DNA of 64,000 nucleotides, from IMG/VR virus record IMGVR_UViG_3300045988_125590, positions 1 through 64,000 of that record; one strand, given 5' to 3'. This stretch comes from a virus. The notes beneath the pieces are model-generated. The model searched no databases. It was given only the letters and a program-made list of their open reading frames with translations, and was not told the DNA's origin. The position numbers and the translations under genes were made by a program. Positions within the stretch are counted from its first letter, which is position 1; each line of letters begins with the position of its first letter. Positions 22,016 to 62,023 of the stretch are shown here, one piece after another.

Positions 22016-22081
22016 AATTTGCTAGAAAATCTATTCACATAGACTTCCTAGCTTGCATATCATGCCTACAAAACAAAGTGT

Positions 22082-22155: not shown

Positions 22156-22225
22156 ATAAAAATGAACTCTATATTCACATACCGAGTTCATATATAGTAC
22201 ATAGTTAAAAAATAAATTAAATACT

Positions 22226-28732: not shown

Positions 28733-28807
28733 TGGTCGCCCCATTCAGATTCGAACTGAAACGTGCGGTTTTAGAGACCGCTGTGCTAACCATTACACCA
28801 TAGGGCA
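28733..28807 (-). tRNA. Amber-suppressor tRNA (anticodon CTA), tRNA-Gln-like body, CCA encoded
   Basis: Acceptor tgcccta/tggggcg (U1-G72); D gtgt-aatggtta-gcac nearly identical to tRNA-Gln(TTG) at 21540-21610; anticodon stem gcggt/accgc with loop ctctaaa (C34 U35 A36 reads UAG); T-arm ttcag-ttcgaat-ctgaa; 3' ACCA. Confidence 0.7.
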
Positions 28808-41009: not shown

Positions 41010-43187
41010 ATGACAAAGGATGAATTGATAGAGAAAACAGACAAAGCAATATCTGAACTAGTCTACCCTAAATATGATTTATAGAAAGCATATAACTACT
41101 ATAATGGTGTAAGAGATTCAGACTAGTTCAGATACTTAGAGGAGGTATACGGAGCTAATGCACCAACTACATTACACTTTACCCCTTTAATAAAGAAGCA
41201 TATTGATGCTCTTATAGGAGAATATTTGGGAACCCCTATAATTCCAAAGATATTCTGTAAGGACAGTTAGACAATAACTAATATAGATAGAGAAAAACAA
41301 TTAAAGATTGCCTCAGAACTTCATGAATATTTAAAAAATCATCTTAGAAATTCAGTTCTAAATTTTATAGATGGAAAGAATATTAATGATGGTCTCATTG
41401 AATAGCAATTGAAAAGAATAGTGGAAGATATAAATAATACGTTCGTATCGGAGTATGAGATTGCTGCCTAGAATGTAGTAGAATATATTATGCAATCTAG
41501 GGATACTGATATGATTACAGTATTGAGAGATCTTCTTCTAGACCTTTTAATTACTGGATACGCTTTCTATAGAGTCCTTCCTACGGTGGAAAATAATAGT
41601 ATTAGAATATAGGCTTTAAGCCCTCTAAACACATTCATTGATAGAAATTTTGAATCTCCATATATTAAAAACTCCTATAGAGTTGTAGTAAGAAGTTGGA
41701 TGACTAAGAATCAAATCTTAAATGAGTATGGTAAGGAAATGAAAGCCTCAGATAGGAAACTCTTAGATGAGAAGTGGGATTCAGTCTATGAGAATGCTAT
41801 GTATTACGTTAGAATGGGTGAAACTAATGGCATACCAAATACTGATGGAGTTTAGGCAGGTGTAGAAGTTACCCCAGGATATCCAGATAGTAGGTCTGGA
41901 ATAACCCATGAGCTTATTCCTGTTTATGAAGTTGAGTGGCTAGAAACCGATAAAGACTTTGTAATGTAGAGATATAAGACTGTTAGGATTGGGGAACAAA
42001 TATATATACTTAGAGGAAAAGATGAAAAGGTTATGAGAACTAAATCAAACCCTTCTTATTGTAGTCTTTCTATTAATGGTATATATTTCTTAAATAGAGG
42101 TACAAAGCCTTACTCAATGGTTCTAGCTTGTGCTCACCTATAGGACTAGTATGACCTTCTGAATTTCTACAGAGATAATCTTATTGCAAATAGTGGAACG
42201 GTTGGAGACTGGATTGACTTAACGTTAATCCCTGCTGAATTGGGAGTAAATCTTCCAGAAAGACTTATAAAATGGTAGGCTTTAAAGAAGCAGGGACTTG
42301 GTGTACTTGATTCCTCACAGGAAGGAAGACTAGCTTCCGGATAGGCTCCATTGAATACTATTTTTAATGGATTTGATAATACTGTTAAAACGTAGGCTGT
42401 TCAAGCTATACAGGTAGCAATAGATGCTATAGAGTAGACTACATCATCTATTACTGGAGTATTTAGGGAAAGATTGAATGGTATTGAGTAGAGAGATGCT
42501 GTTACTAATGTTAAAATTGGATAGAACAATTCATTTATTATAACTAAACAGTATTACCATCAAATGGATTTAATAGTAAATGAAATGTTACTAGACTGTT
42601 TAAACCTTGCTAAGGTTGTATTCAAAAATGGTCTAACTGGAACTATAATATTAGGAGATAAATACCAAAGAATATTTACTGCTCTTCCAGAGTATTTTAC
42701 AATGACTGATCATGATATTAGGATCATTACTAGTACAGATATTGTAAAGGATTTAGAGTAGATAAAGAATATTATTCCAGAATTTGTTAAATCTGGAGGA
42801 CTACCTCCTGATATCATTATTGAGGCAGTAACAAGTAAAAGCTTGCCTGATCTTAAGTATAAAGTTAGAAAAGCTATGCAAATTTAGAAAGATGAAAACA
42901 ACCAAATTCAGTAGTTAACTTAGTAGGTCTAGTAGTTATAGGAGCAGTTAAAGCAAGCTTCTACAGAGTTAAAGAAGTCTCAAGGTGAGATTGAATCTCT
43001 TAATAAAGCTAAGATAAGCCTTGAACAGAAAGAAATAGAAATGAAATACAAACTTGAATGGTACAAGGCCGATACTGATAGAACTTATAAGGAGGCTACT
43101 GCCGAAGAGTAGAAGAGACGTACTGAAGCAGAAATAGCATAGCTATCAGATGGAAACCCTTACAATGATAAAATTAGACAAAACTGA
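41010..43187 (+). CDS. Putative portal protein, TAG-recoded, C-terminal coiled coil rich in TAG-encoded Gln
   Basis: ~725-codon frame from ATG 41010 to TGA 43185, open apart from TAGs. Size and position (directly after TerL) fit a portal; no specific motif verified. Confidence 0.4.
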
Positions 43188-43190
43188 TTA

Positions 43191-43937
43191 ATGGAACTAA
43201 AAATTAAAATAATTACTTGCAATGCCTGTGATAATTGTAAGGTCACTGTACAAGACAATAGTACTTATTTATCAGAGGACAATGTAGGGACTGTAAAGGG
43301 AAAATTCAAATTCTCTGATACTGTCTCTATAGATATACTTTAGCTAAATAAATCATAGGAGGCAATATATTTAGATCCTACGTTTACTGATCATTCCTTT
43401 CTAGATAATTCTACTCTACAGGTATCCTCAGACGGGTGGTATAGTTTAGTTCATATTGTACTGCCGTCTAAGGAATGGTTTGAAAGAGAGTTAAATAAAC
43501 AAGAAGGTTCAGCACTTGGATTATATAATCTAGTATATTTTGCAAGCAATAATAAAGTATACAAGTATATAAACGGGAATACTTCCTAGGTTGATTTATC
43601 TGAAATACTGGAAGTAAATCCTGTAAATACAACAATTTCAAGAACATCAGAAGACTTTATATCTATTTGTTTTTTACGAAAATGTTATATAAATTTGTGC
43701 AAGCAAATTCTAAACGATAGAGGATTCTCTTCTTGTTGGAATAAAAATAAGATAGATAGTGAATTAATATATAAAAGAGATCTAGTCTGGATGGCGATTA
43801 ATGTTATAAAATATCTCACAGAGTGTGAACAACTTGCAGAAGTTGAAAGGCTAGTTGAGATAATTAATGGATGTAACGGCTTATGCTCTCAGTCTAACTC
43901 TTATTAGAATAGTAATGGATGTGGATGCTCTAAGTGA
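43191..43937 (+). CDS. Cys-rich hypothetical protein, TAG-recoded
   Basis: MELKIKIITCNACDNCKV... ~248 codons. Confidence 0.3.
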
Positions 43938-44111
43938 TTTAAAGAAAAAGGTATCCGAAGAATTTTTCCAGCTCATGTGTAGAGTTAGAAGGGGATACAA
44001 ACCAAACTATGAATTTATATTAGAAGAGATTTCTTTTATAGACTTAATAAAGAATAGGGAAATAGATGATAAATTATCTTTAACTGCATTATAGTACTAT
44101 TTAAATAACAA

Positions 44112-45641
44112 ATGGCAGATAATTCAATCTTAACTCCGGGATGCTAGGATACTGTAGATGTTCCTACAACTGCTGATGAGTCTGTTCAGTATTTGGAAAA
44201 GGATAATTTTCTTTCTGAATATGAGAATGAATCAGAGAAGTCAGTAGTAAGAGAAAATCTAAATGTGTATCCAAAGAATGCAGTATATACTAAGGATGAG
44301 ACAGATACTAACATTGCTACAACAGTAACAACTGCTGTTAATAAGCATCTTAGTGTTGAAGACCCTCATGGAACCTTGGATACTGTAAGAGAGATGATTG
44401 CAGACATGGCTAAAACAGATGGAAGTACTCCATTTACATCTCCTCAATCTGGAGTTGAGCCTATTTCTGATAGTCATTTAACAACAAAGAAATTTGTAAC
44501 TAGATTACTAAATGAACATACTAGATTAGTTGGACCTGATGATCCTCACCAAATATTGCCAGAAGTAAGAACTATCCTAGAGAAATACGTTAAGTCTTCT
44601 GACATATTTACTAAATCACAGCTCTATACAAAACAGGATGTAGATAACCTATTAAAGACTTTCTTAAAGAAAGATGGAAGTACTCCATTTACTATTGCTC
44701 AAATAGGAGTTGATCCAACTATAGATAGTCATCTAGCTACTAAGCGTTACGTAGATAAAACCCTTTATGCTCACTTAGTAGATGTGGATCCTCACGGATT
44801 TCTAACTATTTTAAATCAAAGGTTAGCTTCTTATGCTAAGATAGCTAATGTGTATGATAAGACTCAAACATACTCTAGAAGTCAAATTGATGCATTTATT
44901 AACAAGTGGGTCTAGGAAGCTGTAGCTGGGGCTATTGCAGAGTATATGGAAACAGTAGACGATAGATTTGAAACTATTCGTCAAGAAAAATATGTTAAAC
45001 AGGACGGATCAGTTCCATTTAAGGCTCCTCAGAAAGGTGTTGACGCTATTGATCCCCAAGATTTAGTAACTCTATACTAGGTTGAGGAAAAAGTAGAAAA
45101 CTTATAGGAGTAGATTACTAATAATGAACCTATATGGAAGACTTCTGGTCCTGTAGAATCTACCGTAGGACATATTGACGATAACACTCCAGTTCCAGCA
45201 ACAATGAGTTTGCAAGAAGTATTGGATGCTATATTCTATGGTAAAGGAATTTCAATTTCAGCTCCAGACTATGTAACTATCAATAATAAGGTTCCGGTTA
45301 CACTATGTGTTCATGGTTCTACTGGACTCATTGATGTAGCAGAATTATACCAAGATGGTGAGTTAACAATTTCTTTTGTTAAAGAAGATTTTGAAAATGG
45401 ATGTGTGACTACTGATAGCTTGCCTATTATAGAAGACACAGAATTTACCTTTAAGGTAACTTACACTAATGGGGCTGTGCATGAAGAATCTACTACTGTA
45501 AAGGTAGCTCTTCCAATTTTTGTTGGCCTTCTTCCAAAATGGAAATTTGGAAATGTGATTACGTGGAATTATTTAGAGGAACTAGCCTCAGAAGAACCTA
45601 ATAACAATCAATTTATAAGTAGTAGTAACAACTTAAACTAG
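44112..45641 (+). CDS. Structural (fibre-like) protein with a thrice-repeated ~28-aa motif
   Basis: Repeats TDGSTPFTSPQSGVEPISDSHLTTKKFV / KDGSTPFTIAQIGVDPTIDSHLATKRYV / QDGSVPFKAPQKGVDAIDPQDLVTLYQV; two in-frame TAGs. Confidence 0.45.
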
Positions 45642-45889
45642 ATCTCTATAAATTATGGTTTTTAGGATGCAAAATTAAGACATCCCTTTGTTGTAGTCCC
45701 TGTGTCCTATCCAGACCTAGACAATATGTCTACAACTCCACAGAAATTTGGGATAGATGCTTTTGATGTAATTGATATGATTCCTTTGAAAGTGCCTGGA
45801 GTCGAGAAAGACATAATTTTTAAGATTTACATATACAGATAGGCACTGTCTAGCCTAAACTAGGAAGTAACTTTTAATTTTGCATAAAA

Positions 45890-47356
45890 ATGAGTCAATA
45901 TAGTGAAATGATGGGTAGTTTCATCAGAACAGGTGACTATCCAATGGAGGCCAACTACATATTTAGTAGTGAAGAGGAATTAAAAGCATTCTATGCTGAT
46001 GAGCTTAATAATACTACTCTACATAAGGGATTACTTAAGATAGTATCGTCTGGAGATTCTTAGACTTTATACTGGGTTATTGAAGTTGGAGGAGAATTAC
46101 AGTTCAAACCTCTTATACAAGAAGGATCTATTGATAAACTATTTGATAGGTTAGCTCAGATAAGAAACGATCTCAATTAGGAAATTTCTGACAGAAAGAA
46201 TAGTATTCTTGAAATTGTCGGAACTGATGACATGTCAGAGTTTCATAATCAACTAGACAACTTACTTGCGATTTCAAATGCTGTAGTAGATTTACAGAAA
46301 TAGTCTGCCGAACATTCTAATATCTTGTCAGCTATAGTAGGAACGGAGGAAGAGAATGTTTTGGAATACTTAAAATCTTTAGATTATAATAATCTATCAG
46401 ATATTTCCAACTTGCTTCACAAGTTTTTTGATACGGTCGATGACTCAGACTCATAGATAAATACTCTTCCAGAATTGCAAAAATTCTTAAGAGGTTTTGA
46501 TTATACTCATAACCTGTATCAACATTTAAGAGACTTGTGGAATGAAATTCAAGGAACACCTACTCCGAGTACTACTTTTAGAACGCTAAGAGGTGTATAG
46601 GATTTTGTGGAGACTCTTGCCTCAGTTTCTAATAATAGAGATAATAATTTCTAGACAGAGCTAGACTAGACCTAGGTGGGAGTGGGACTAAGTGGAGATG
46701 GATCATTTAGTCCTGACTAGGAAACTAACTATCTGAAAAGTGCTACATCAGTGATGAATGCACTGAAGACTTTAGATGGACTTATTGCATAGGCTTTAAG
46801 AACTTCTAAATTAATTCCTACAGAAACCAATACAGTCTCCATTACAGTTGATGAAGACGTTAAAAGTTCAGATATCTCGGCTAATGTAAAAGTTTCCAAC
46901 GGAAGTGATATTATCGTTAATAATGATGGTTTATATACTAAACTGTCTACAGAATATGAGAATGGCATCTTAACGATTAAAGTCAATGGAAATATTAGAT
47001 CACAGCATGCCTTAGCTATTTCCTCTATTATAGACAATGCTTACTACGATCAGGATACTGAGTCTTTAGTTTTTAATTTTAAAAATTCTTAGGAAGTAAT
47101 TATTCCAATAGATAATCTTATAGAGGAATGGGTTGTAGACAATCCAGATGATAAAGTAGTAGAACTTTCTAGAGAAAGAGTAGTATCAGGAACAGATAAA
47201 TTATCTGCAGATGTAAGACTGGATTCTTCGAACTATAATATTCTAAAGAAAACTGGAAATTCTTTAAGCGTAGACGGAAGATCCTCCAGTATAACACATG
47301 ATGGACACCCTCTTAGTGAAGTTTTAAAAGACATAACTGAATGGTATGAAGGATAA
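45890..47356 (+). CDS. Hypothetical structural protein, TAG-recoded
   Basis: ~488 codons open except ~15 TAGs. Confidence 0.35.
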
Positions 47357-48209
47357 AAGAAAACCAGGATAGAGTCAGCTTGATTATTTATGGGTAAACT
47401 ATGGAGAATTTTCTGTATCTACTGAACCATCAGATGATACAGATGCGATTCTCACCTAGGGGGCTATAAATTCTATACTACAGAACTTCAGTGGAATCTC
47501 CTCTGTGGAAGTTGTCGAATAGGAAGGAAATAAGGTTTTAAAAGTAGTAACTTCCGACGGTAAAATATCAACATATCCTTTTCCTTCTAGTATTACAATA
47601 CAGAGCTTTACAAAAAGATAGATAACTCAAGCTGACAGAAATAAAGGGTGTGAATTACCATTGGGTACTTGGGTATATTCAATTCTATTATCAGACGGTA
47701 ATGAATATCTAGCTCCTATAGATAAATATATAGGAAAAAGTTCAGAATCTATCATAATAGATGTAATAGAAAACTCAATATATGCTGAACTAAAGATCAG
47801 TAACCGTCCTTCTATAGTATCTTTAGGAGTATATGGAGATGGTATTTCCGCCGATTTAGATCTCTCTTCTAAAGTAGGAGGAGTAGTTTTTGAAAAGAAA
47901 GACGATGGTCTCTCGGGAGAAGTAGTTCTGCAAAACTCAGACAAAGTTATCAGGTTTAGCTTACTGACATCTGAAGAATACTCCGATTTAGTTGAAGCTG
48001 ATCTAGTGGATGATACTACTATGTATTTTATAAAAGGGTCTAAGTATTTTTATTTTGGACTGTATAAAATGGGAGGAACATCCGGAAGTGTAGAACTAGA
48101 CGATTACTATACTAAACAAGAGATCGATAGCAAATTGAGAAGTTATGCTACTAAAGATTACGTACAGACAGAATTAGATAAAGTAACTATAAACTGGATA
48201 AACGTTTAA
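47346..48209 (+). CDS. Hypothetical structural protein, TAG-recoded, overlaps previous gene by 11 nt
   Basis: ATG 47346 in frame with ORF 47661..48209. Confidence 0.35.
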
Positions 48210-48213
48210 TTTA

Positions 48214-49329
48214 ATGATTAAATTTTTCAGAGGTCTAAGAGCAAGTTACACTTATACTACAGAAAACCCTGGTAACTTGCTTGATGCTTTATTTTTTGCA
48301 ACGGATACTGGAGAACTCCTTTTAAATGGAAAACTCTATGGATCTGATGGAGAAAAAGTAAAAGATGTGGAGTTTGATCCTTCAACTAATACATTTACCT
48401 TTACAAAGGCAGATGATTCTACAGTAGTTGCAAATCTTGGAGACAAACTTCTAACAGATGCCGATAGAACCCTACTTAATAATGTCGCAGACATGTTTGA
48501 GGGAGGTTAGATGAATGTAACTTATAACTCGGGATTAGATAGCACCGTTGCTACAGTAGAAAAACTTGGAGGTATTGCTGCTGGAACAACAGTAGCTCAA
48601 CTCACAGGGTAGACTATTTCTAAAGTGCTAGACACTCTAATATTCCCAACTATTCAACCTACAATTACTGCACCATCTGCTTCTCTTTCTTTAAAATCTG
48701 GGGTATCCAACATTAAAGAAGTAGGAGATGCTGGATACACCACAAAAGATTTCACTTCTACCTTTAACCAAGGCGCTATTAAAATAGGTACCTCTACATA
48801 GGGCCCAAGAGCTGGAGCAAAATCATCTGATGTTATTTATGCTGGAAGTGAAGCAAACGGGATTCCAAATGCTATAACTGCTGGAACAACAAACTTCTAC
48901 TACAAGGTGTAGTATGCTAAGGGTCCTGTGCCACTAGATTCTAAGGGTAATCCTGCTGCATCTTATACAGCTCTTCCTGCTGGATCAGTTACTTCTTCTG
49001 CAGTAGCTACTTATGGGGTATATCCATTCTATGCTAACATAGAAAATGCAGCTCCTTCTAAGTTACCTCTTACAAAGAATCTGACGTTTACAGCAACTCT
49101 AGCTGCTGAAGGTCCTAACAAACATGTATTTAAACTTCCCCATGTTGTTACCAAGATTGAGATGTTGAATACTTTGTCAAATCAGTATGAAGTATATGCG
49201 CTTGAAAACTTTACTACTGGAACAGAAGAAATTACTGTTCAAGGAACAAATGTAAATTACAATACTTATACTAGAAACGATGCAGGATTCAATGGAGAAA
49301 CTACTTATAGAATTACTTACTCTAAATAA
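48214..49329 (+). CDS. Fibre-like protein, paralog-family member 1 (shared N-terminal motif), TAG-recoded
   Basis: N-terminus ...LLDALFFATDTGELLLNGKLYG. ORFs 48214..48510 and 48928..49329 are in the same frame, linked through TAG codons. Confidence 0.4.
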
Positions 49330-49336
49330 TTAAGTT

Positions 49337-50308
49337 ATGGCAAGAAATAGAGGAATATTTAATTTTTCGGCTAACCTAGAGGTTAAGAAGAATGCTCCGT
49401 TAGATTCTAGAGTAGTAGTAGATACCCTCATTGAATTAACAGAGACTTCTACATGGGCTGATAGTGATAATAAAGTATGGCTTTATGATGGTATTGTAGT
49501 ATCAGTACGAGAAAATCATGGGCTATACATGCTTACTAAATATGATGCAGTTACAGCCCCTACAGCATATACTGACTCTAATAATTGGGTTGCAGTAGAT
49601 GCCTCAGCCGCTAAGACAGACGTTACAGATAATCTAACCTCGACAAGTACTACGTCAGCTTTATCGGCTAATCAAGGTCGAGTTCTTAAAGAAAATATAG
49701 ATAATCTAAAAACATCTCTATCTGCAGTCTACATTTATAAAGGATCTGTAGATACTTACGATGCTCTTCCTACAGAAGTTGCAATTGGCGACACTTATAA
49801 TGTAGTAGCTGCCCATGGAAGCACACCTGCTGGAACTAACTATGCTTGGAATGGAGAAAGCTGGGATGCCCTTGGTGGATCGGTTGATTTAAGCTCATAT
49901 TACACTAAGAGTGAGGCTGATAAAGCTATTAGTGGGGCTGTTTCAAAAGTAAGCGAAGATGTTTCTACTTTAAAAGAATCTGTAGCTCAAAATACATCTG
50001 CCTTAAACGTACTTAATGGTACTGAAGAAACAGCAGGATCTCTGGCTAACACACTTAAGATCGCCAAAGACTATACCAATACGCAACTAACTGGATACGT
50101 TGCCAAGGTAGAAGGAAGTTCTTTAATTTCAGAAGAAAAACTGGCACTAATTGATACTAATGCTGCTAGTATTGCAGCATTAAAGGCTAAAGTTGAAGCA
50201 AATGAAGCTGCACTAGCCACACTAAATGGAGATGCAAGTACTTCTGGATCAGTTACAAATACAGTAAATTTAGCAATTAATTCTGCTTTAGAGTGGAATG
50301 AAATTTAA
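49337..50308 (+). CDS. Fibre-like structural protein (Ala/Ser/Thr-rich), no TAG
   Basis: 323-aa ORF. Confidence 0.45.
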   Translation: MARNRGIFNFSANLEVKKNAPLDSRVVVDTLIELTETSTWADSDNKVWLYDGIVVSVRENHGLYMLTKYDAVTAPTAYTDSNNWVAVDASAAKTDVTDNLTSTSTTSALSANQGRVLKENIDNLKTSLSAVYIYKGSVDTYDALPTEVAIGDTYNVVAAHGSTPAGTNYAWNGESWDALGGSVDLSSYYTKSEADKAISGAVSKVSEDVSTLKESVAQNTSALNVLNGTEETAGSLANTLKIAKDYTNTQLTGYVAKVEGSSLISEEKLALIDTNAASIAALKAKVEANEAALATLNGDASTSGSVTNTVNLAINSALEWNEI

Positions 50309-50325
50309 CAAAAAATATATAAAGT

Positions 50326-51753
50326 ATGAAAAAAAAAATGTTTGTTCACATTGCGAGTAAAGCATCGTTTACTGCAGACCTTTAGGCTTAGTATACAAAT
50401 TCTATAGTCTTTATTAAGGACTCTGGAGAAATCTTTACTCATGGTAAATTCTATGGTTTGAGCTCTGAGTGGCAAGAAAAAATAACCACTGCAGAAAGTG
50501 AGATAGATGCTTTACAAGAAGCTGTCAAAGCTCTTCAAGCCATTAACGCATTCACAACTATTTCTGATGGTACTAACACCGCTTCGGCAACTTCTACTGC
50601 TAAAACTATTAAGTTCAATGCTGGTGGTAAGGCTAGTGTGTCTGTAGGTGTTAATGGTGTAACAATTAGTGCTTCTGGCACGACTTTGGCAGAAGGTACT
50701 GCTAATGGTGAGACTTCTGTAGATGGAGTAAGTAAGTCTATCATCAAGGGGCTCGGCACTGCCGCTTACCGTTCAGAGGATGCTTTCTACTCAGCTACTG
50801 ATGGTGCAGCTGCAGCTGCAGCTGCTGAGGCTGCCAAGAAGGCTGCTGAGTCTAAAGTTGCTAGCGTAACTGCTACTACAGGTTCCGCAATTGAAGTCAC
50901 TGGAACAGCAACTGCTCCAACAGTTGGACTCAAATTGGATAAAGCTTCTGGCAATGTAACTCTCAGTCAAAGTGCTGCTGGTCTTAAAGCTTCTGTACAA
51001 ATACCAGCAGCTACTGTAACAGGAGTTGCTACAGGTGATAAAGTTCTCGGACTCAATGGAACTCTATTATCATCTACATTGAATCTAAAATATAACTCTA
51101 CTACTAAGAAGATTCAATTACTTGGAATTAAAAATGCAGTTATTGCCGAAGTAGATGCTTCTGACTTTATTAAAGACGGAATGGTTAATACCGTTTCTTT
51201 TGATCCTAAATCTAAAGCTCTAACTATTACTTTCAATACAGATTCAGGTAAAGAGACTATTACAGTAGATCTATCGTCATTAGTTGATACATATACAGCA
51301 GGTAATGGCATTGCTATAGATAAAAATGCTGTATCTATAAAAGTAGATCCTACTTCAGAAAAGTTCTTGTCCGTAGATACAGCTGGAGTGAAAATATCTG
51401 GAGTACAGTCTGCAATTGACGCAGCTAAGGATGCAGTAGTTGGCGAGGATACTGATACTGCTACTTCAAATACTGTGCATGGTGCAAAGGCTTATGCAGC
51501 TTCTCTAGCAAGCAATTATGCCACAGCTGCTCAAGGTAAAAAGGCTGACAGTGCTCTTCAATCAATTACTAAGGGAACAGATGGTTCTTATGTGACTACA
51601 ACTGTAGGAGCTAAGTCCAATAATTCTCAGACTATAGCTACTTCGGTAACTGTTCAGGCTATTAGCTCTGCTTCTAGTACAGCTAAAGGTCTTGCAGAAG
51701 CTAACGATGTTAAAACATACGTTGATGCCCTCTTTGCTTGGGAAGAACTTTAA
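50326..51753 (+). CDS. Fibre-like protein, paralog-family member 2; A10 homopolymer at codons 2-4
   Basis: ATG 50326 in frame with ORF 50458..51753 through two TAGs. N-terminus ...SIVFIKDSGEIFTHGKFYG; long Ala/Thr/Ser/Gly-rich C-terminal region. Confidence 0.45.
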
Positions 51754-51874
51754 TTAAAAAAAAAATTGAAATAAATTTGGAAGTTAGTAATCACTAATTT
51801 TTATTTTAACTTATATAACATTTCATAGTCTCTCTTGATGGTAAGGGAGACTATGAAATTCCAAACATTTTATT

Positions 51875-52345
51875 ATGGCTATAAATAAAAAATTAATCCA
51901 TTTTCAAAATAAAACAGCATTTACTACAGAATTAAATGCTGGAAATATCCTAGATACTTCTATAGTATTTATAAAAGATACAAAGGAAATCTGGACGCAC
52001 GGTCAGCTTTACTCTTGCTCCCTTACTGAAGAAGAAGTAATTTCTATTATAGAGAACAGTGACTCCATATCTAATCTTACAAATGCATTAAACAATAAGG
52101 TAGATAAAGTTGATGGTAAAAGTCTCACTTCTAATGACTTTACTGATATCCTAAAGACTAAGCTAGATGGAATCGCTGAGAATGCCAATAACTATTCACT
52201 GCCAACTGCTAGTGACACTGAATTGGGTGGGGTTATAGTAGATAGTATTTTAAGTCCTACATCTACAAACCCGGTTTAGAATAAAGTAGTAAAATCTGCA
52301 ATAGATGAAATAGATGGTAAGCTATCTTGGGCTAAAATAAACTAA
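51875..52345 (+). CDS. Paralog-family member 3 (short), TAG-recoded
   Basis: N-terminus ...SIVFIKDTKEIWTHGQLYS; continues past TAG at 52277 to TAA 52343. Confidence 0.4.
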
Positions 52346-52375
52346 TTATAGAAATCTTCCTAAAATAATTATATT

Positions 52376-54163
52376 ATGGCTGAAATTGAACAACAATTTA
52401 TTCAAGTAAAAACAAAGTCCAACTTTGATACTAGACTCAAGTCTGGAGATATTAAAGATACTTCAATAGCTTTCATTGAGGACTCAGATCAAATTTGGGC
52501 CAAGGGAAAGTATTATTCAGCTATTCCCAAAGAAGGTCACAAAAGGCAAATACTAGCATGGAAGGCTAATGGAGAAGCTAAGTGGGAAGATCTAGCAAAT
52601 ATGTTTGCTGGTCTTGAAGAGATATTAGCTTATGGTGTATAGTTTGATATAACTGTAGCTGATCCACATCTTACTCGTATTGGTAACATGTCCTTTCATA
52701 AGTCTCTTCCTATTCAATCTCAATTGAAAGGTTGTATTGCTCAAGGAGGTAAAGTAATCTATTGGTTAGATGAATTTGATTGGAGGTTTAGAAAAGAAGC
52801 TATTACTAAGTCAGTAGAACTAACTGTAGCAGGTAATGTTTATACTATGGTAGCTGATGTATTCAATACTTTACAGTATGATAAATAGTGGGTAAAGGTT
52901 AATGGAGTAGCTTGCCAAATTAGCAGCATCGACACTGGTACTAATACGGCAACCCTTCTTGTTAATTACGATCTTGCAGTTCTTAATCTATAGAGTGGTA
53001 CAAAGTCTATAGAACTAGGAGCAGTTCTGAATGGTTATGATGGTACTGTACGAGTATATTGCCCAGCTTTCTATATTAAGTCTACAGTTGATGGTAATGT
53101 ATCTAAAGTATGGTTGTCTACTATTGAGCTTGATGATACTTATACTTATCAACCAGAAATCTTAGTTGACGCTTACAGAAGTACAGTTCTAAATTCTGTT
53201 CCAGAGAACATGGGATATCTAAGTACTTTACCTGTAAATAGTGCTATCTCTGTAGTAAATACTAATGCATACTGTAGAGGTGGAGCAAATAGAGATTATC
53301 TAGATAAGAATTTAGCAACTGATCCATTCAGAACAGACTTAGGTAAGCCTAGGACTATTATTTCTAGAGCTACTATGAGAGAATACTCTAGAAATGCTAA
53401 CTCTCAAATGTTGAGTTATGACTAGTATAAGAACATATTCTATTGGCTTTATGTAGTAGAATATGCTAACTTTAACTCACGGGAGGCTTATAATGAAACT
53501 CTCACAGACGAAGGTTATCGTCAGGGAGGTATGGGAGTTGGTATTACTTGGATGGATGGCTGGTGGGATTATAATTCAGGCGCTCCACTAACTCCTTGTG
53601 GTTATGGTAATGTTCTTGGAAATGGAACAGGACTTGCAACCTTAACTATTCCTAAATTTACTTGTAGTACTGATAATACTGAAATAGCTGCACAAACAAT
53701 GTCAATGCCAAGATGGAGAGGATTCGATAATCCATTTGGAGACATTTTTACTAATCTTGACGGAATTATAATAGATGCTGACTCGAATAATCATCCTGAT
53801 CGTATGACCTATGTATATACTTGCCAGGATGCTAGTAAGTATGCAGACACTCTTAACGATTCTTATGTTAAGGTAGGAGAGGAAATACATCAGGATGGAA
53901 ATATTAAGTCATTTGACCTAGGAGACGCTGCCCATATAATTCCTAATCGTATAGGAGGTGATTCTACCACATACATTTGTGATTTTCACCTGGCAGGATA
54001 TAAAGACAAGACCTTACGTACGCTTCTCGTGGGCAGTTACGCTCTTGGCAGCCCGATTATGGGTCTCGGTAGCTTCAACTCGAGTAGCGACGTGTCTAGC
54101 GCCTAGACGTATATCGGCTTCCGGTCGGTTTCTGATTTTGTTTCTTTTCCTTCAGGTAAATAA
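52376..54163 (+). CDS. Paralog-family member 4, large (~595 aa) fibre/receptor-binding-like protein, TAG-recoded
   Basis: ORFs 52376, 52688, 53114 and 53531 share one frame, joined by TAGs. N-terminus ...SIAFIEDSDQIWAKGKYYS. Confidence 0.4.
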
Positions 54164-54303
54164 TAGAAGCAAAAAGGTAAAATAAATAAAAGAGAGAAGT
54201 AATTTTAGATACTCAGGTTGGAATAAAAAAGAAGTTGGAATAAAATAATTTTTTATTTATTTAAACTCAATACCTAAGTATCCTGCATAAATTAAATTGA
54301 ACA

Positions 54304-55026
54304 ATGTTTACAGCGATAAAAATTGAATCTACCATTGAGCCTAAAAGCTTTGAATCATTAAACAATGGTATTTGGTATTATAACTATGACGTAGAGAAGA
54401 AAGTAGTTAAGGTCTCTTCTGTGAGGGGAGACGAAATAGAAGAAACAGAGGAAACTAGATATTCTTATGTTCAAGTAAGAATTTCTGGAGAACCTACTTT
54501 ATCTAAGTGCTTTGAGGCGATACTTAGAGCATATAAAGATGAACACAACACTAGCCTTTATGATGTTCTCCTATCAGAGGGAACTAATGACTAGATAGAT
54601 GATATTAATTACAATATAAAAGTTGATTTTAATATTGCTCCAGAAAAGTCACCATTAGATAGAGCTAAAGAGTTAGTGCTTAGAGAGATTGACTAGTATG
54701 ATACGTCTTCTAATGTTAATGGGTTTATGTTAAATGGAGTCTAGGTTTGGTTAAGTAAGGATACCAGAGTCGGACTTATGAACTCTATAAATATTGAGAA
54801 GAATGCTGGAAAAGAGGAATCAGTTTTATGGTTAAATGGAATTTGCATTACCGTTAACTGTGATGCAGCAGTTCAAATGTTAAGCTCTTTGGAGTTATAT
54901 GCATTAGCTTGTTATAACAAAACTGCAGAGCATAAGTTAGCAGTTAGTTAGCTAACTGATGTATCTAAAGTGAAGGCTTATGATTATACTGCTGGTTATC
55001 CAGATAAGTTATCATTTAAGATTTGA
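54304..55026 (+). CDS. Hypothetical protein, TAG-recoded
   Basis: ORF 54304..54594 continues through TAGs to TGA 55024. Confidence 0.35.
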
Positions 55027-55136
55027 TGTCCACTTTTGCCTTATCCTGTTTAATACTATCACTTGCTATATATATTGGATATACAGTATACATTAGAATT
55101 AAATACAAACCAGACTGTATATCATAGAGCTATTAT

Positions 55137-55514
55137 TTGCTTAATAATGGAAATATTTTCACTGCATGTATAGTGGCAATTGCATTTCTTACCTTCCCAG
55201 CGTGGGTGGAGATTAGTCCTATATGTTTTCAATTTCTCCCATTCTTATCAGTAATAGCTTTAGTATTAGTTGGATTATGCCCAAGGTATCTAGGGCAAGA
55301 TAGAATCCCTCATATAGCGGGAGCTAGCATAACTTGTATATTATCCATAGTTTGGAACATAGTTTCTGGAACACTATTAATTCCGGTATTATTGCTAATA
55401 GTATTAATACTTATATTTGCATTCAATGTTAAAGATAAGCTATTCTGGACAGAATGTTTAGCGTTCTTAAATATTTATTCTTCAATAATTATCAAAGCGA
55501 GCCTGGTCTTATGA
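55137..55514 (+). CDS. Multi-pass membrane protein
   Basis: 125 aa, 3-4 predicted TM helices; followed by a hairpin plus T-run. Confidence 0.45.
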   Translation: MLNNGNIFTACIVAIAFLTFPAWVEISPICFQFLPFLSVIALVLVGLCPRYLGQDRIPHIAGASITCILSIVWNIVSGTLLIPVLLLIVLILIFAFNVKDKLFWTECLAFLNIYSSIIIKASLVL

Positions 55515-55530
55515 CCAGGCTTTTCTTGTT
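55495..55530 (+). terminator. Rho-independent terminator candidate
   Basis: agcctggtc-ttat-gaccaggct stem-loop followed by tttcttgttt. Confidence 0.45.
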
Positions 55531-55731
55531 TATATACATATTCCGACTTAGAAATTTTTTCTATTATTTTTAACATTTGTTAACATTATTTAATTTGGAT
55601 TCATTAAAATAAGTTGTAATTTTGATTGTTACAAAATTGTACTAATTTAGTTACGAAGCGCTTCAGTTTAAAACCAGATTCACTTTAGTATTATAGATCT
55701 TTTATTATAACAATCTTCTAAATATAATTTT

Positions 55732-56727
55732 ATGTCTGACAGTAAAGTTTTTATGTTCCCAGAAAATGGAACAAATAACAACGGACTAATATCAATGTTA
55801 GCTCCTCTACTTCAGTAGAGAGGAATAGATCCTAATGTATTGCTTGCCACAAGGAATAATTCTGGCTTCGGAGGAGAAGGCGGATGGTTCATGTGGGTAA
55901 TATTCTTATTCTTCCTCATGGGATGGGGAGGAAATGGCTGGAATGGTTTCGGAGGAAACCGTGGAGCAGGTCAAGTAGGAGCAGATTTAGGAAACTTAAT
56001 TAACAATGATAATGGTCGAGAACTTTTAATGCAAGCTATTCAAGGAAATGGTAACGCTATTAGTCAGCTTGCTACAACCCTTAATTGTACTCTTGGTGAT
56101 GTTTAGAGTGCCATTAATGGAGTTATGTCACAGATTTAGGGAGTAGGAAACCAAGTTGGTATGTCTTCTCAGCAAATTATTAATGCAGTCCAGGCAGGTA
56201 ATTGCCAAATTGCTAGCAAAATTGCAGATTGTTGCTGCGAAAATAGACTAGCAACATGCCAGCAAACAAATACTCTGCAGAATGCAATAAATACAGTTGC
56301 AAATGGACAAGAGAGAGGTTTTTCTTCTGTTGCCTACGAGACACAAAGACAAACTTGTGACCTTAAAGATAGTATAAAATCTGCAGCAGATTCAATCTTA
56401 GCAGGTCAGAGAGATGCAGAGATGAGAGAAATGCAAAATAAGATAGATGCGCTAAGGGAGTCAAATTCTCAGAAGGACGTTGCTATAAATAATGGTCATC
56501 AAACTGCAGTATTCAATCAAATGATTCAGTCCGCAACTGCACCATTAGCTGGTGCTCTAGCTACTTTACAAAGTGATATAAATGGAGTTAAGTGTAAGCT
56601 TCCAGAGACTGTAACACTTCCATATAGTTGTGCGACAGCAGTTCCTACTAATTTAGTTTATGGATATAATCTAGCAAACTATGGATTAGGAGGATGCTCA
56701 TGTGGAAATAACTCACTATGGGGTTGA
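55732..56727 (+). CDS. Membrane-anchored Gly/Asn/Gln-rich protein, TAG-recoded
   Basis: ATG 55732 in frame with ORFs 55840 and 56161. TM segment GWFMWVIFLFFLMGW; Cys-rich segment NCQIASKIADCCCENRLATCQQ. Confidence 0.4.
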
Positions 56728-57555
56728 GAAAGGAGGGAATATGATATTACCTGCTTATATTAATGTAAATATTGGTGGTATCCCTGCACTTCGTTCATTA
56801 TCTGTAACTGTTACATCTTCTAAAGTTCAATATGATTTTAACAATCACAGAAATGTAGGAAGACCTTATCGTGGACTATTAGTTATTAATTTAGCATAGC
56901 CTATTCCAACGGGAACTACTACAACTCTTCCAGTAGTGTTTACCACTTCTGGAGGTAATGAACAGCCACTAGTTAAGGCAAATAATGCTCCCGCAACGGT
57001 AGAAGATATATCTGGAACTGGGATATACTTAGTTTGGTATGAAAGCTAGACTAATACCTTACAATTAATTAATCTATAAAATTTATAATATGTTTTCAGC
57101 TTTGAGATAGGGCAGTGTGGTTTACATCTTGGAAAAGGGAGAAAACCCAGTTCTGAAGGTAGGACAAGTAGTAAGTATAACACAACCCAACTATAGTAGT
57201 AATTTTTTAATGAATGGATCAACCATTGATATTAATGTAAAGGTTAATAATTAGAATATGGACTTTAAGAACGTTCCGTCCTCTTAGTCTGTAGCTAATT
57301 ATAATAATGCTGTTATAACAGAAACAAAAGAATTAATGTCAAATGAGGTTGACAATATGTTATAGAACAGTAGGAGTATTGTGGATAGTGTTACTTATCA
57401 CAATAATATAATAACTTCCTGTGAAAGTATCCTTAAGGAGCTTAATCCTAGATTTGCTAAGGAAAAGGAACGGGACGAAGATATTAATAACCTAAAGGAT
57501 AAAATGGGAGGTATAGAATCTAAGATGGATAAAATATTGGGCCTACTCCAGAAGG

Positions 57556-57804
57556 ATGGAAATAAATAACATTATTGCTATGAAAGGATTTATTGAAATA
57601 AAGGAAGATTCTTATGAAGATACTATTGAGCATCTTCACAGAATAAAGCTACTCGCATGTAAACTTATAAAAATGCTTTCTGAACATTCAGAAGTTTATG
57701 ATAAAGATGACGACTATGAGGACGAGGATGAAGATATGAGAGATAGACGCTACGGCTACAAAGAGTCTATGTCTCGCAAGTCTAAGGGAAGATATAACTA
57801 TTAA
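57556..57804 (+). CDS. Small acidic hypothetical protein
   Basis: 82-aa ORF; terminator-like hairpin downstream. Confidence 0.35.
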   Translation: MEINNIIAMKGFIEIKEDSYEDTIEHLHRIKLLACKLIKMLSEHSEVYDKDDDYEDEDEDMRDRRYGYKESMSRKSKGRYNY

Positions 57805-57810
57805 TAATAG

Positions 57811-57848
57811 GTAGGCGGTGGCAGATTATTTTGCTTCCGCCTATTTTC
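57811..57848 (+). terminator. Rho-independent terminator candidate
   Basis: ggcggtggcag-attattttgcttcc-gcc stem then tatttt. Confidence 0.45.
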
Positions 57849-57858
57849 ATTTAAGACT

Positions 57859-58236
57859 ATGAGAGAGGATTTTACTGAATATGATATTAAACCTGAGGGA
57901 TTTATTAACTACTTAAGGTACTACGGCCCTCATTTTAATAAAAAGTTATGCGAATTTGCATGTAAGCAAATGTAGAAGATGGAATATTCTAAGGAAAAGC
58001 TTGATGTACTATTACAATCCCATAATATCGAGATCCAAAATGCTAAGTTACACGACGCTGTATATGTCGCTAACTGGTGCAGAAATGTTTTCTATGGATC
58101 TAGTATTGCTGATGAGAAGCATTTTGTTCTCTTTATTAAAGACATTTTTGATAAGGAGCCTGATTTCATTTTCAATAGGTGGTACGCAGATATGGCTAAG
58201 TAGGGTATTCCTATAGAATGGGAAGATATGATTTAA
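57859..58236 (+). CDS. Hypothetical protein, one in-frame TAG
   Basis: MREDFTEYDIKPEGFINYL...; ORF 57979..58203 extended through TAG to TAA 58234. Confidence 0.35.
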
Positions 58237-58320
58237 ATAAATGCCTAGTGTTCATTTCGTTTGGACATTAGGCATTTATTGTTTATAATTGCAATATAAA
58301 CTAATTGACAAGAATTTGTT

Positions 58321-58920
58321 ATGGAAACTATTAAAAGTAATTACATTATATGTTTAGACAATGGACATGGGGTAAATACTCCAGGAAAGTGTAGTCCAGA
58401 CAAAAGGCTTAAAGAGTATTAGTATGCTAGAGAGATAGTTAAAAGACTAGAATCTAAATTGAAGGAAAATGGCTACAAGGTATATGTGGTCACCCCAGAA
58501 TAGGAAGATATTTCTCTAAGGGAAAGATGTCAAAGAATTAATAAGGTATGTAGAGAAAATGGAAATAAGGCTATTTCCATCTCTGTACACTGTAATGCTG
58601 CTGGAGCAGATGGTAAATGGCATACTGCCTCAGGCTGGAGTGTATTTATATCTTAGAATGCTTCTCAAAATTCAAAGAAGCTTGCTAAGACTCTTTACGA
58701 TGAGGCTCTTCTACTAAATCTTAAGGGAAATAGAGCTATTCCAAAAGAACGTTACTGGGTGTAGAATCTTGCGATGTGCAGAGATACTATTTGCCCAGCA
58801 GTGCTAACAGAAAATCTATTTTAGGATAATAAAGATGATGTTAATTTTTTACTCTCAGAAAAAGGGAAACAAGCTATAGTAGATGCTCACTATAATGGAA
58901 TTGTAAAATATTTAGGATAA
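58321..58920 (+). CDS. N-acetylmuramoyl-L-alanine amidase (Amidase_3 family) endolysin, TAG-recoded
   Basis: LDNGHGVNTPG, ISISVHCNAAG and NLAMCRDTICPAVLTENLFQDN match the Amidase_3 zinc-ligand and catalytic motifs; ~6 in-frame TAGs. Confidence 0.65.
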
Positions 58921-60869
58921 TGGACTTAGAAAAGGAAATTCTGCAGTTAAAAGCTAAAATATCTGAATTAGAAGCCTCCAAAAAGAATAATCTGTTCGGA
59001 AGTACTTATAACAATGCCGGATCTTCTTCTGCAGACTTCCTTATAAAAACCAAAGGTAAGGTAAAAATACAGTATGGATCCAAATTTATTGATCTTATAA
59101 AAGATGGAAAAATAAATGTGGATGCTAAATTTATATATAAGGAGAAAGAAGTAGGAGTAAAGGACGGTATTTATGTTATCGGAGAGGGAGAAGACAGTAG
59201 AGTAGTTCTTCTTATAAATGGAACACAAATAGATTTAAAAGGAGATGTTGGAACTACATACGTTTCTTTTCTTGGCCCACAGGAAACCTCTTCTGATGGA
59301 AAGCATATAGCTTTAACTAACATAGGTTTTATATATCCAAGTTTATAGGATATTAAGGATACTAGCTTGAAAGATGGTATAATATATATCGAATCTGAGT
59401 AGAAACTTTATATAGTGTAGGGAGGTCAATTATCAGAATATGAAATGTCTATACCAACTCCCTATTCTAAGTAGTTCATAATAGCTAAAGAAGATTCTAA
59501 TGAAGGAGCTTTAGTTATATATGGTGAAGGTATATATAATTCTATAGCCTTTGATTCTTTTCACATATACGAAAAAGATTCTGATGGATGCATTCTTACA
59601 AAGAATAATTTAAAAGTATTAGTAAATGGGAACTAGAAAATGATAGTTAAGGATGATATAATTATATGTTCTAATCCTGTGTCCTCTACCATATTTTAGT
59701 CAATCGGAGCATCTCAAGCTAATGGCTTTAGATTATATGATAATGGAAGCCAATCTACATTAGAAGTTGATAATTTAGTTGTAAGAAATTCTACAGATAA
59801 TAACACTCTACAAACTCTACCTGAGTATTGGTATAGTACTAATAATATTATCAATTCTGCTTCATATTATACAGACGATATCGTGGAAGAGACCGCCTTA
59901 CAATTTACCTTAAAACTCAAATATGCTAATGAGTTCCAAGAATAGGATAAATTAAAGGTATATGCTTAGTATATTCAGAACTCTCTAACAGTACAAGATC
60001 TAATTCCATTAGTAGTCCTTAGCGTAAACAGTGATGATAATTCAATTAGAGTAAAAATTGATCAATCTCAAGTATCTGCGGCTAGTATAGATTAGATTGG
60101 GAGTGATTCTATTATTTCTGGTTTAAGTAATTAGATATTGTTCTTAACAGAAAGAATTGATAAAGCTATTCCAACAGTTAATCATAAAGGATTCGCAATA
60201 ACTAAGGGAGACAAGAAAGTAGTCTAGGCAGGAACCCTAGACGAATTAGAAATAAAAGTAAAGGAATAGGTTGTTACTGGGATTGGACTCTATACTGATT
60301 AGTTATTTTTAAAGAAAGCCTCCTATATTGATACCTATACCCTAGAACCTAACGACAAATCTCAGAACTTTGCCTCAACTGAGTGGGTGCAGAAGTATAT
60401 AAATAATTTATTTCCAAGTGGAAGTATTATAATGTTTAACGGATAGTCCTCGACTATTCCATAGGGATGGGCTATATGTGATGGAAAGAATGGTACTCCT
60501 AACTTAATTGGAAAATTCATAAAGGCTTCTGATAGTTCCGGAAAAACTGGAGGAAACTCAAGAATAGAGCTATCAGTCGACAACTTACCTAAACATTCTC
60601 ATTCTATTCCAGAATTATAGGGAACTGCTATATCTGCTGGAGAACATACTCATACTACAAGTGCTTTACAAGCAACTACTAAAGTTGCTTAGGGAGACGA
60701 AATATCTGTAATGTCTACTGTTACTACTGTAGAGGGAACTACATCATCAAATGGCACTCACACTCATGGTGTAACTATTGAAAGCAGTTCTACTGGATAT
60801 ACAGGAACAGGAACTCCTCTAGAATGGGAACCACCGTATTACTCCTTGATATATATCATGAAATTGTAA
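58920..60869 (+). CDS. Tail fibre protein with C-terminal phage-tail-collar-like domain, TAG-recoded
   Basis: ATG overlaps the amidase TAA. C-terminus PQGWAICDGKNGTPNLIGKFIKASDSSGKTGG...NLPKHSH resembles the collar-domain consensus (P.GW..CDG....YP.L....G...G....LPD). Confidence 0.5.
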
Positions 60870-60949
60870 TTTCAAAATAAACTTTAATATAGTTCTTTTT
60901 TGAAAAGTTAAAAAATATTATATTTACTAATAAACTAAAAATTTTAATT

Positions 60950-62023
60950 ATGGAAATAGGAAATAATGATGACATTGACTTCATCGATGAATTAGACGAT
61001 GAACAGCAATCTAATGAACAAAAACAGGATCCAGGTCCTGATAATCATCAAGAACCAGAGAATCCAGAGCCAAAGGATCCAGACAATACAGACACTCCAG
61101 ATCCAGAGGAAGGAAAAGAGGATGACTTTCTTACCTCTCTTCTAAAATCTAGAGGAATTGAAGATAAATCTAAGATTAAGTTTGCAACAGAAGAAGGTGA
61201 TGTAGAAGAAGTAGATTGGGATAGTCTAAGCAATGAAGACAAACTTAACATTCTTAGTTCTTCTGAAAGCACCCCTGAAAACGGCTTAGATGAGTCCGAA
61301 ATTCAACTTATAAATGCTATCAGAAATAGCGGCATGAGTCCGTCTGAGTATCTTCAATTTATAGGAAATGGCGAAGTTGAGCGCTACATTCAAAATTCTC
61401 AAGAGCCACAATATGAAATTGACGCATATTCAGATGATGAACTATTTCTCATGGACTTTATGAGCAGAATGGGAGAGGTAACTGAAGATGAGGCAACCGA
61501 AGCTTTAGAGAGGGCTAAAGCTAATGAAGGTCTGTTTAAGAAACAAATAGAAGCTATTCGTAACGAATATAAGCAAGCGGAACAGGAGAATCAAATGCAA
61601 GCACAGCTTGAACAAGAATAGATTGCTCAATAGCAATATGATTAGTTTTCTGACTAGATTGTAGACGAAATCAACAACCTTAAGGAGATTCAAGGATTTG
61701 AGTTAAATATGGAAAATAATGATATGCAGGAACTTTATGACTTTATTACTGGTCGAGATGCTGCAGGAAATAATTATTTAGCCAAAGCTTTATCAGATCC
61801 TCATGTCTTAGTTAAGACTGCATGGTTAGCTCTAAATGGTGATCAAATGGTCAACGACATTACAAGCTATTTTCAGAAAGAAATAGCAAGTGTTCGTAAA
61901 GAAAGTTACAAGAAAGGAGTTACCGATACTCAAAAGAAGATGGAGAAAACTGATAATGTTGTATTTAAGGATACACACACTAAGCCATCAAAGGAAATAT
62001 TTGATGACCTTGATGAACTTTAA
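60950..62023 (+). CDS. Acidic coiled-coil protein, scaffolding-protein candidate, TAG-recoded
   Basis: ORFs 60950 and 61709 share a frame and are joined by 4 TAGs. Highly acidic; lies immediately upstream of the capsid-like gene. Confidence 0.4.

Follow-up and report, generated by a model that had tools for sequence, protein, structure and literature searches.

The window, by which we mean the whole 64,000-nucleotide stretch of viral DNA that was analyzed, contains a block of fiber genes downstream of the terminase gene, the portal gene, and four conserved genes. Four of the genes in this block encode a short N-terminal module of one of two types, A or B, and the features referred to below are as follows:

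28733 to 28807, minus strand: tRNA with anticodon CTA, detected by ARAGORN (label "Pyl").
48214 to 49329, plus strand: g48214, 371 amino acids (aa), with four in-frame TAG codons when TAG is translated as glutamine; B-type N terminus and β-rich body.
48214 to 48342, plus strand: B-type module of g48214, residues 1 to 43 (MIKFFRGLRASY...ALFFATDTGELLLNGKLYG), from subfamily comparison and profile-profile alignment.
49337 to 50308, plus strand: g49337, 323 aa, a fiber protein within the array that lacks the module; Pfam Phage_fiber_rpt at residues 96 to 125.
50326 to 51753, plus strand: g50326, 475 aa, A-type module and Ala/Thr/Ser-rich fiber body, C terminus ...LFAWEEL.
50326 to 50457, plus strand: A-type module of g50326, residues 1 to 44.
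51875 to 52345, plus strand: g51875, 156 aa, a short fiber with an A-type module and a predicted helical stalk, ending ...LSWAKIN.
51875 to 52015, plus strand: A-type module of g51875, residues 1 to 47.
52376 to 54163, plus strand: g52376, 595 aa, A-type module followed by a body of the phrog_5302 "tail protein" family at residues 63 to 585.
52376 to 52519, plus strand: A-type module of g52376, residues 1 to 48.

TAG is a sense codon in this phage, probably for glutamine (Q). The four module-bearing genes are intact at the coordinates above only when TAG is translated and are fragmented under the standard code; all of their internal stops are TAG, and all of their terminators are TAA. Once TAG is translated as Q, the genes, lengths, and quoted strings reported in a first-pass annotation of this DNA agree with ours; the need for TAG read-through was not mentioned there. 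Treating TAG as sense nearly doubled the open reading frame (ORF) coverage of the window. Late genes are rich in TAG (up to 26 each), and genes at 1 to 28 kb have none. Where orthologs of g52376 align to its TAG sites, Q is the most frequent residue (20/40), followed by E (6/40). By sequence, the in-frame TAG codons, the suppressor tRNA, and the alignment of TAG with Q appear to place this phage among those with a code 15-type recoding, and the tRNA at 28733 to 28807 is likely the TAG suppressor that enables translation of the four fiber genes. Two TAG codons (50383 and 50389) fall inside the module of g50326, so a standard-code call of this gene, which starts at the TTG at 50458, loses the whole module.

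Scans for promoters and terminators gave counts at chance level. The body of g48214 matched no family in Pfam or PHROGs. Residues 71 to 137 of g51875 matched the ϕ29 head-fiber family PF11133 (E = 4.5e-4), with a score of 20.2 bits that is under the gathering cutoff of 24.6, and a search of PDB sequences with g51875 found nothing above chance level.

The first-pass annotation held that all four genes share an N-terminal motif of about 35 aa. This was borne out for three of them. In BLASTP comparisons, g50326 matched g51875 (E = 2e-9), g51875 matched g52376 (E = 1.5e-9), and g50326 matched g52376 (E = 2e-3). When a hidden Markov model (HMM) of the family was used to search the complete six-frame ORF set of the window (1,122 ORFs), these three genes scored E = 1e-17 to 1e-31; the next ORF was at E = 0.27, and no further module copies were found. 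Similarity of g48214 to the A-type HMM was not significant (5.8 bits; the top score among 5,000 shuffles was 7.4 bits) when the ortholog P0016, which is 94% identical to g48214, was excluded from training. Profile-profile alignment of the B-type with the A-type (hhalign), however, placed the two in register from the start methionine over 47 columns, with a score of 21.3 (P = 1e-3); column-shuffled profiles (n = 40) scored no higher than 14.9, and a reversed profile scored 9.1. We therefore regard the N terminus of g48214, with moderate confidence, as a divergent second subfamily linked to the A-type by profile similarity. In all four genes, the conserved unit is a whole small domain of about 43 to 48 aa rather than a 35-aa motif. 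A stretch of g47346 (DDTTMYFIKGSKYFYFG) was considered as a further module and rejected because its similarity was not significant; it resembles a PF24243-type motif at a level under Pfam thresholds. The PF24243 phage tail tip domain was not matched by any of the window's proteins in Pfam, and it does occur at the C terminus of some other family members.

Within the window, the A-type modules reach 44% identity at the amino acid level, and the module DNA of the paralogs is 46 to 57% identical, with no exact match of more than 10 nucleotides (nt). Selection therefore operates at the level of the protein, and recent gene conversion has not taken place. More generally, module subtypes are 29 to 44% identical within a genome, and modules of the same subtype are 60 to 96% identical between phages. 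The module of g51875 belongs to the subtype nearest the family consensus, MAINKKLIHF...DTSIVFIKDT.EIWTHG..Y.

The module defines a large family, with at least 2,036 cluster representatives at an E value of ≤1e-3 and 826 at ≤1e-10. It lies at residues 1 to 50 in nearly all representatives, in proteins of 50 to 1,913 aa. Scans of Pfam, PHROGs, and NCBIfam contained no model for the A-type or B-type module, and papers on Zeta crAss-like phages and phAss-1 do not describe it. The module is a distinct, unannotated domain of 43 to 48 aa; a conserved N terminus with exchangeable bodies is already textbook phage biology. Bodies in the family include Peptidase_S74, Fibritin_C (at the C terminus of two members), Phage_fiber_2, a pectate-lyase-like domain, and Lcl_C; PF11133 is matched by two members. 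Fifty long members matched 80 PHROG families, many of which are named tail fiber, tail protein, or tail collar fiber. In a word-indexed search, all A-type matches were 38 to 97 aa long. Standard-code gene callers cut most family members short at the first recoded stop, and a large domain family is thus hidden from standard gene calling. Genome assemblies did not yield a host: matches occurred only in metagenome-assembled genomes with scattered taxonomic labels, which are probably misbinned phage contigs.

Related phages place the array in a recurrent setting. In each related locus, a variable slot with conserved flanks lies downstream of the portal gene and contains one to six A- or B-type genes in tandem, and one related module-bearing phage recodes TGA. 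Which module-bearing genes occupy the slot between g47346 and g52376 differs from one related phage to the next. Orthologs of g48214 are present in L001 and L002, and orthologs of g52376 are present in L003, L004, L006, and L007. The block is best explained as the variable fiber cassette of a TAG-recoding gut phage. The sister phage L001, which is 98% identical, lacks a segment of this cassette:

52029 to 52604, plus strand: 576-bp segment missing from L001, which takes in the C-terminal coding end of g51875, the intergenic spacer, and the opening codons of g52376.

As a result, residues 1 to 51 of g51875 run on in frame into residue 79 and onward of g52376, joined at a CTG microhomology, and the chimera has lost the g52376 module together with the 27 residues that follow it. 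Homologous recombination between modules was rejected as the origin of this fusion because the fusion point, at the 3-nt microhomology, is not within the module alignment and the modules share no exact match of more than 10 nt. At the level of sequence, the chimera shows a natural module swap that appears to be tolerated, its viability being assumed from a metagenomic contig. The annotation had further described the C-terminal parts as unrelated and as interchangeable modules. Both descriptions hold: the bodies are essentially unrelated in sequence comparisons, and the varied fiber and spike bodies across the family, the variable slot, and the L001 chimera all attest to exchange, with the same N terminus seen on different C termini both within the window and across related phage loci.

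The module is confidently predicted to adopt a β-α-β-β-β fold. In the AlphaFold2 (AF2) model of the g51875 module, strands span residues 7 to 10, 30 to 33, 38 to 41, and 44 to 47, and a helix spans residues 13 to 21, with a pLDDT of about 90 or more. AF2 module models reached a pLDDT of 92 to 97 in context; alone, the pLDDT was 86.8 and the pTM was 0.65. The best 10 Foldseek matches were all trimerization domains of collagen XVIII or XV (probability, 0.97 to 1.0), and the monomer model superposes on this multiplexin domain, a compact α/β unit of about 55 residues that was the best match by two methods. HMMER profile searches of PDB sequences (E ≤ 10) gave no link from the module to collagen domains, and PDB sequence searches with two module profiles, as well as with g49337 and the capsid protein, returned chance-level matches only. 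A likeness of the collagen XV/XVIII stretch FIYLRDSTEFF to SIVFIKDTKEIW was not supported by HMMER.

On balance, we think that the module is probably a trimer-forming, virion-proximal cap that also docks the fiber, with bodies exchanged at its boundary. At the end of the fiber nearest the virion, three copies of the module would assemble as a compact trimer, a cap that would fix the register of the trimeric stalk downstream, which in g51875 and g50326 is a predicted helical coiled coil directly after the module. The same cap would plug into a site on the virion, and the C-terminal body would provide a binding or enzymatic function and could be exchanged freely at the module-body boundary. Trimer formation is suggested by fold similarity, and docking, and with it the virion-attachment adaptor envisaged in the first-pass annotation, is suggested by analogy with other phage fibers; the support for trimer nucleation is no weaker than that for docking, and the two are compatible. 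The divergence of subtypes within a genome counts against one common docking site and is equally consistent with homotrimer specificity.

A less probable reading drops the docking step. The module would then be only a nucleus for trimerization and registration, an N-terminal counterpart of the foldon, with virion attachment through other parts of the fiber or through other fibers, and subtype divergence would prevent mixed trimers among fibers that are expressed together. The closest fold matches are indeed autonomous trimerization domains, the helical stalk is predicted to begin where the module ends, and the divergence of paralogs in one genome alongside the conservation of the same subtypes across phages fits this reading, as does the presence of the module on very heterogeneous proteins, some of 1,000 to 1,900 aa. 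However, a conserved external partner is suggested by the way the module starts strictly at residue 1 and by the high conservation of its opening residues (MAINKK...) across many phages and genetic codes. In characterized phages, the N terminus of a fiber is usually the attachment end. Moreover, because L001 also lost the residues after the g52376 module, there is no obvious other anchor upstream of the body in its chimera. In a stronger version, which we consider rather unlikely, the module would be an autonomous and very stable N-terminal trimerizer related to the multiplexin domain by common ancestry or convergence, its subtypes would form a homotrimer code, and it would serve as a universal plug for shuffling receptor-binding bodies in recoded gut phages.

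It is similarly doubtful that some or all of the array proteins are head (capsid) fibers whose module binds a capsid hexon pocket, as gp21 of PhiCrAss001 does. The cassette is flanked by the portal and capsid genes, like gp21 in that phage, g51875 is short and weakly matches ϕ29 gp8.5, and the matches of two family members to the same Pfam family (PF11133) are in keeping with this reading. The g51875 match, however, is subthreshold and falls over a generic fiber repeat, the annotated bodies are mostly of tail fiber, tailspike, or tail protein types, and no match to gp21 or gp29 of crAss001 was seen in the sequence searches or among the fold matches listed. Finally, the possibility that the N-terminal resemblance reflects chance, compositional bias, or nucleotide constraint at gene 5′ ends has little beyond the failure of g48214 in the clean A-type HMM test to recommend it and is extremely improbable, given the HMM scores of the other three modules, the thousands of database relatives, the confidently predicted fold, and conservation at the protein level; for g50326, g51875, and g52376 it is already refuted.

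Uncultured recoded gut phages could be screened with a model of the domain, which would flag their fiber and receptor-binding genes and mark a natural splice point for host range engineering. If strong trimerization were borne out, the module would offer a compact N-terminal trimerization tag to complement the C-terminal foldon.

Among known systems, PhiCrAss001 offers a structural precedent for fiber N termini that dock: residues 1 to 38 of gp21 bind a capsid hexon pocket, and residues 1 to 26 of gp22 sit in a tail hub (PMC10172136). Both fibers are trimeric, and their genes are flanked by the portal and capsid genes (PMC10172136), a position like that of the array. gp21 is a short fiber with a ϕ29-like C-terminal part, and g51875 may be alike. 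The portal and capsid proteins of the window are nevertheless unrelated in sequence to those of PhiCrAss001. The module, g51875, g49337, and the capsid protein matched no crAss001 chain among PDB sequences, crAss001 chains were absent among the fold-search matches listed for the module, and the window phage is therefore not close to PhiCrAss001. The sole PDB match of the window's portal protein, an unrelated TAL effector (E = 1e-4), was set aside.

The multiplexin trimerization domain (PDB codes 3n3f, 3hsh, and 3hon) is like the module in its size of about 50 to 55 residues and in adjoining a trimeric rod, a likeness that rests on the AlphaFold monomer model. The two differ in that structure-aligned identity is 7 to 16% with no HMM-level similarity, and the multiplexin domain belongs to a metazoan extracellular protein and is joined to a collagen triple helix, whereas the phage module is joined to a predicted coiled coil or to β-structure. 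The role proposed for the module resembles that of the T4 fibritin foldon (Pfam Fibritin_C), the small autonomous domain from which trimerization of that phage fiber nucleates; the foldon is a C-terminal β-hairpin of about 27 residues, whereas the module is N-terminal, α/β, and twice that size.

The array as a whole resembles systems in which modular receptor-binding proteins carry conserved anchors or docking peptides at their N termini, as reviewed for K1-5/SP6, the Klebsiella KP32/KP34 dual receptor-binding proteins, and the Ackermannviridae tailspike complexes (PMC6872550, PMC11414711, PMC13352976). The module has no detectable sequence relationship to those systems and, unlike them, occurs in uncultured stop-codon-recoding gut phages, where any docking or branching is putative. 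In both settings, tandem fiber or spike genes combine a conserved N terminus with exchangeable, variable C-terminal specificity domains, with swaps falling where the two parts meet.

Standard-code translation of the fibre region yielded broken ORFs. Straight-through translation revealed that the reading frames of the array are interrupted by TAG only and that every frame closes with TAA, and ORF coverage of the whole window nearly doubled when TAG was read as sense. TAG is nearly absent from the minus-strand genes at 1 to 28 kb, while single late and structural genes have as many as 26 in frame. In orthologue alignments, TAG positions mostly corresponded to glutamine (20 of 40 aligned residues). 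Together with a tRNA gene bearing a CTA anticodon, these features argue that the window is part of a phage that recodes TAG to glutamine. The array is listed here with TAG read as sense; genes are named by start coordinate.

806..23292, 19 further tRNA genes
28733..28807, minus strand, tRNA gene, anticodon CTA, at the boundary between TAG-poor and TAG-rich genes
38419..40773, large terminase, upstream of the array
41010..43187, portal, upstream of the array
48214..49329, g48214, 371 aa
49337..50308, g49337, 323 aa
50326..51753, g50326, 475 aa
51875..52345, g51875, 156 aa
52376..54163, g52376, 595 aa
58920..60869, tail-collar fibre g58920, downstream of the array (phrog_1800, E = 6e-20)
62054..63481, major head protein, downstream of the array

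The first-pass annotation had proposed that four of these genes share an N-terminal motif. For g50326, g51875, and g52376, this similarity is significant: BLASTP gave E values of 2e-9 (g50326-g51875), 1.5e-9 (g51875-g52376), and 2e-3 (g50326-g52376), and a family HMM run against 1,122 six-frame window ORFs recovered all three at E = 1e-17 to 1e-31, the next-best ORF scoring E = 0.27. We refer to this N-terminal domain as the A-type module. No further copies were found within the window, and g49337 lacks the module. The fourth gene, g48214, was rejected as a clean A-type member, because its E value of 3e-8 came from an HMM trained with P0016, its 94%-identical orthologue; with P0016 left out, it scored 5.8 bits, and the best of 5,000 shuffles reached 7.4 bits. 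It belongs instead to a B-type subfamily ('M..VNF.RG.K..Y....hYF.TDT.EhLLNG..YG'), which also occurs on other fibre genes of related loci and in 32 database clusters. Starting at the initiator Met, 47 columns of the B and A profiles aligned with a score of 21.3 (P = 1e-3), compared to at most 14.9 for 40 column-shuffled controls and 9.1 for a reversed profile. In the related locus L002, a B-type module is followed by a short element ('IPEGGSEGQILMYAGPRQVKWATIE') that also follows the A-type module of g52376. Thus, g48214 is a probable distant relative of the A-type genes, with moderate statistical support. The window modules are only 46 to 57% identical in DNA and share no exact match longer than 10 nt, which marks them as old paralogues under protein-level selection.

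The g50326 module holds two TAG codons (50383 and 50389), and the standard-code call of this gene begins at TTG 50458, so that the entire module is lost; this illustrates how recoding conceals the family. A word-indexed module-profile search of 5.8 billion proteins returned 231 proteins, all of 38 to 97 aa and many on contigs of 60 to 176 kb. These short matches are gene calls ended at the first recoded stop. Exhaustive HMMER searching of 1.84 billion cluster representatives yielded 2,036 matches at E ≤ 1e-3 (826 at E ≤ 1e-10), nearly all with the module at residues 1 to 50 of proteins spanning 50 to 1,913 aa. Domain matches among fifty long members were to Peptidase_S74, Fibritin_C, Phage_fiber_2, Phage_fiber_rpt, Lcl_C, a pectate-lyase-like domain, and PF24243, and the same members match 80 PHROG families, many of which bear names such as tail fibre, tail collar fibre, or tail protein. 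No model for the module itself exists in Pfam, PHROGs, or NCBIfam.

The module is present on nine viral contigs of 63 to 176 kb. Most recode TAG; L008 (IMGVR_UViG_3300009716_000010) recodes TGA, and L005 looks standard. Since L008 carries three tandem A-type genes at 6519, 7718, and 9998 (405, 757, and 1,327 aa), the family spans phages with different recoded stops. In each 15- to 20-kb locus, one to six A- or B-type genes stand in tandem; all but two loci have two or more, and the bodies that follow the module measure 16 to 1,278 aa. Gene order is conserved (portal, g43191, g44112, g45890, g47346, a variable slot, g52376, g54304 and onward), and the contents of the slot differ from phage to phage; the expectation that related genomes would carry the same N-terminus on different C-termini was thus borne out. 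Contigs L010 to L014 also bear the module and were assigned to MAGs labelled Methanobacteriaceae, Intestinibacter, Lachnospiraceae, Roseburia (a 172-kb contig), and Anaeroplasmataceae; mis-binning of phage contigs with bacterial or archaeal genomes is the most likely explanation.

Other features of the region were also recorded. Adjoining the fibre slot and conserved in most relatives, g44112 (44112..45887, 591 aa) contains about three copies of an internal repeat ('DGSTPFT.PQ.GV.P..DSHL.TK..V'), also seen as a 73-bp DNA self-match (44417..44489 versus 44672..44744). Near the fibre cluster are two conserved cysteine-rich proteins, either of which could be a structural or docking component: g43191 (43191..43937; C-terminus ...NGCGCSK), which is shared by L008 and the TAG-recoding relatives L001, L002, and L007, and a Gly/Trp/Cys-rich protein (55732..56727, phrog_16490). 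The His-rich C-terminal stretch of g58920 (KHSHSIPE...GEHTHTT...GTHTHGV) recalls the HxH motifs with which phage fibres bind metal. A 121-nt spacer upstream of g51875, the one long gap between genes of the array, contains an inverted repeat (CATAGTCTCTC...GGGAGACTATG, 51820..51855) that was not called by a terminator scan.

A natural swap was found in the sister phage L001 (169.5-kb contig), which matches window 41865..62000 at 97 to 98.5% identity except that 52029..52604 is missing. This fuses g51875 residues 1 to 51 in frame to g52376 from residue 79, via CTG microhomology. Assembly collapse is an unlikely source, because the junction does not lie within a repeat. Given the low DNA identity of the modules and their lack of long exact matches, the swap was illegitimate rather than homologous recombination. 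This chimera and the diversity of bodies among the 50 long members show that C-terminal bodies are interchangeable on the shared N-terminus, as first proposed. P0001 (65 aa; 852-bp ENA contig) consists of only the g51875 module and the final dozen or so residues (…KLSWAKID), so module and C-terminal tail can evidently exist stalk-free. Residues 52 to 78 of g52376 (52529..52609) form a short post-module element (KEGHKRQILAWKANGEAKWEDLANMFA), which recurs after a B-type module in L002 (about 19490..19560, as EGGSEGQILMYAGPRQVKWATIE) and is deleted in the L001 chimera; it thus behaves like a separate, dispensable mini-module.

Five consecutive fibre-like proteins end in similar Trp-containing tails (ITEWYEG, TINWINV, ALEWNEI, LFAWEEL, and LSWAKIN; gene ends at 47356, 48209, 50308, 51753, and 52345). 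By count, such endings occur in about 11 of 29 module-bearing ORFs of the window and related loci (L002 to L005, L007, and L009), e.g., LTWTILD, LNWETID, and NEWTTIE. This tail may act as a docking peptide or as a C-terminal element resembling the foldon.

AlphaFold2 modelling of g51875 residues 1 to 134 (95-sequence alignment) gave pLDDT values of 92 to 97 over residues 11 to 50 and predicted a strand (7 to 10), a helix (13 to 21), and three strands (30 to 33, 38 to 41, and 44 to 47), followed by long helices. Modelled alone, the module adopted the same fold (pLDDT, 86.8; pTM, 0.65). The ten best Foldseek matches in the PDB were all the collagen XVIII/XV trimerization domain (probability, 0.97 to 1.0), although with E values of only 0.015 to 0.14. 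While no sequence similarity to this domain was detected, it is the best structural analogue of the predicted fold and an unexpected lead. The module is interpreted as a small domain that heads trimeric phage fibres. Its analogue trimerizes autonomously, and a helical stalk is predicted directly after the module. The most economical mechanism would be a three-copy cap that nucleates the fibre and sets its register. Trimerization may be the whole role of the module. Three observations suggest that the same trimeric cap would also plug the fibre into the virion: residue 1 is invariably the start of the module, the opening residues are strongly conserved from phage to phage, and fibres of characterised phages attach via their N-terminus. 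In PhiCrAss001, residues 1 to 38 of gp21 are bound in a hexon pocket and residues 1 to 26 of gp22 are seated in a tail hub (PMC10172136). For the module described here, attachment may be to the tail or to the head, and divergent subtypes within one genome may serve separate sites or prevent mixed trimers. The principle of a conserved N-terminus with exchangeable bodies is already well known; what is new here is a large, undescribed domain family concealed by stop-codon recoding.
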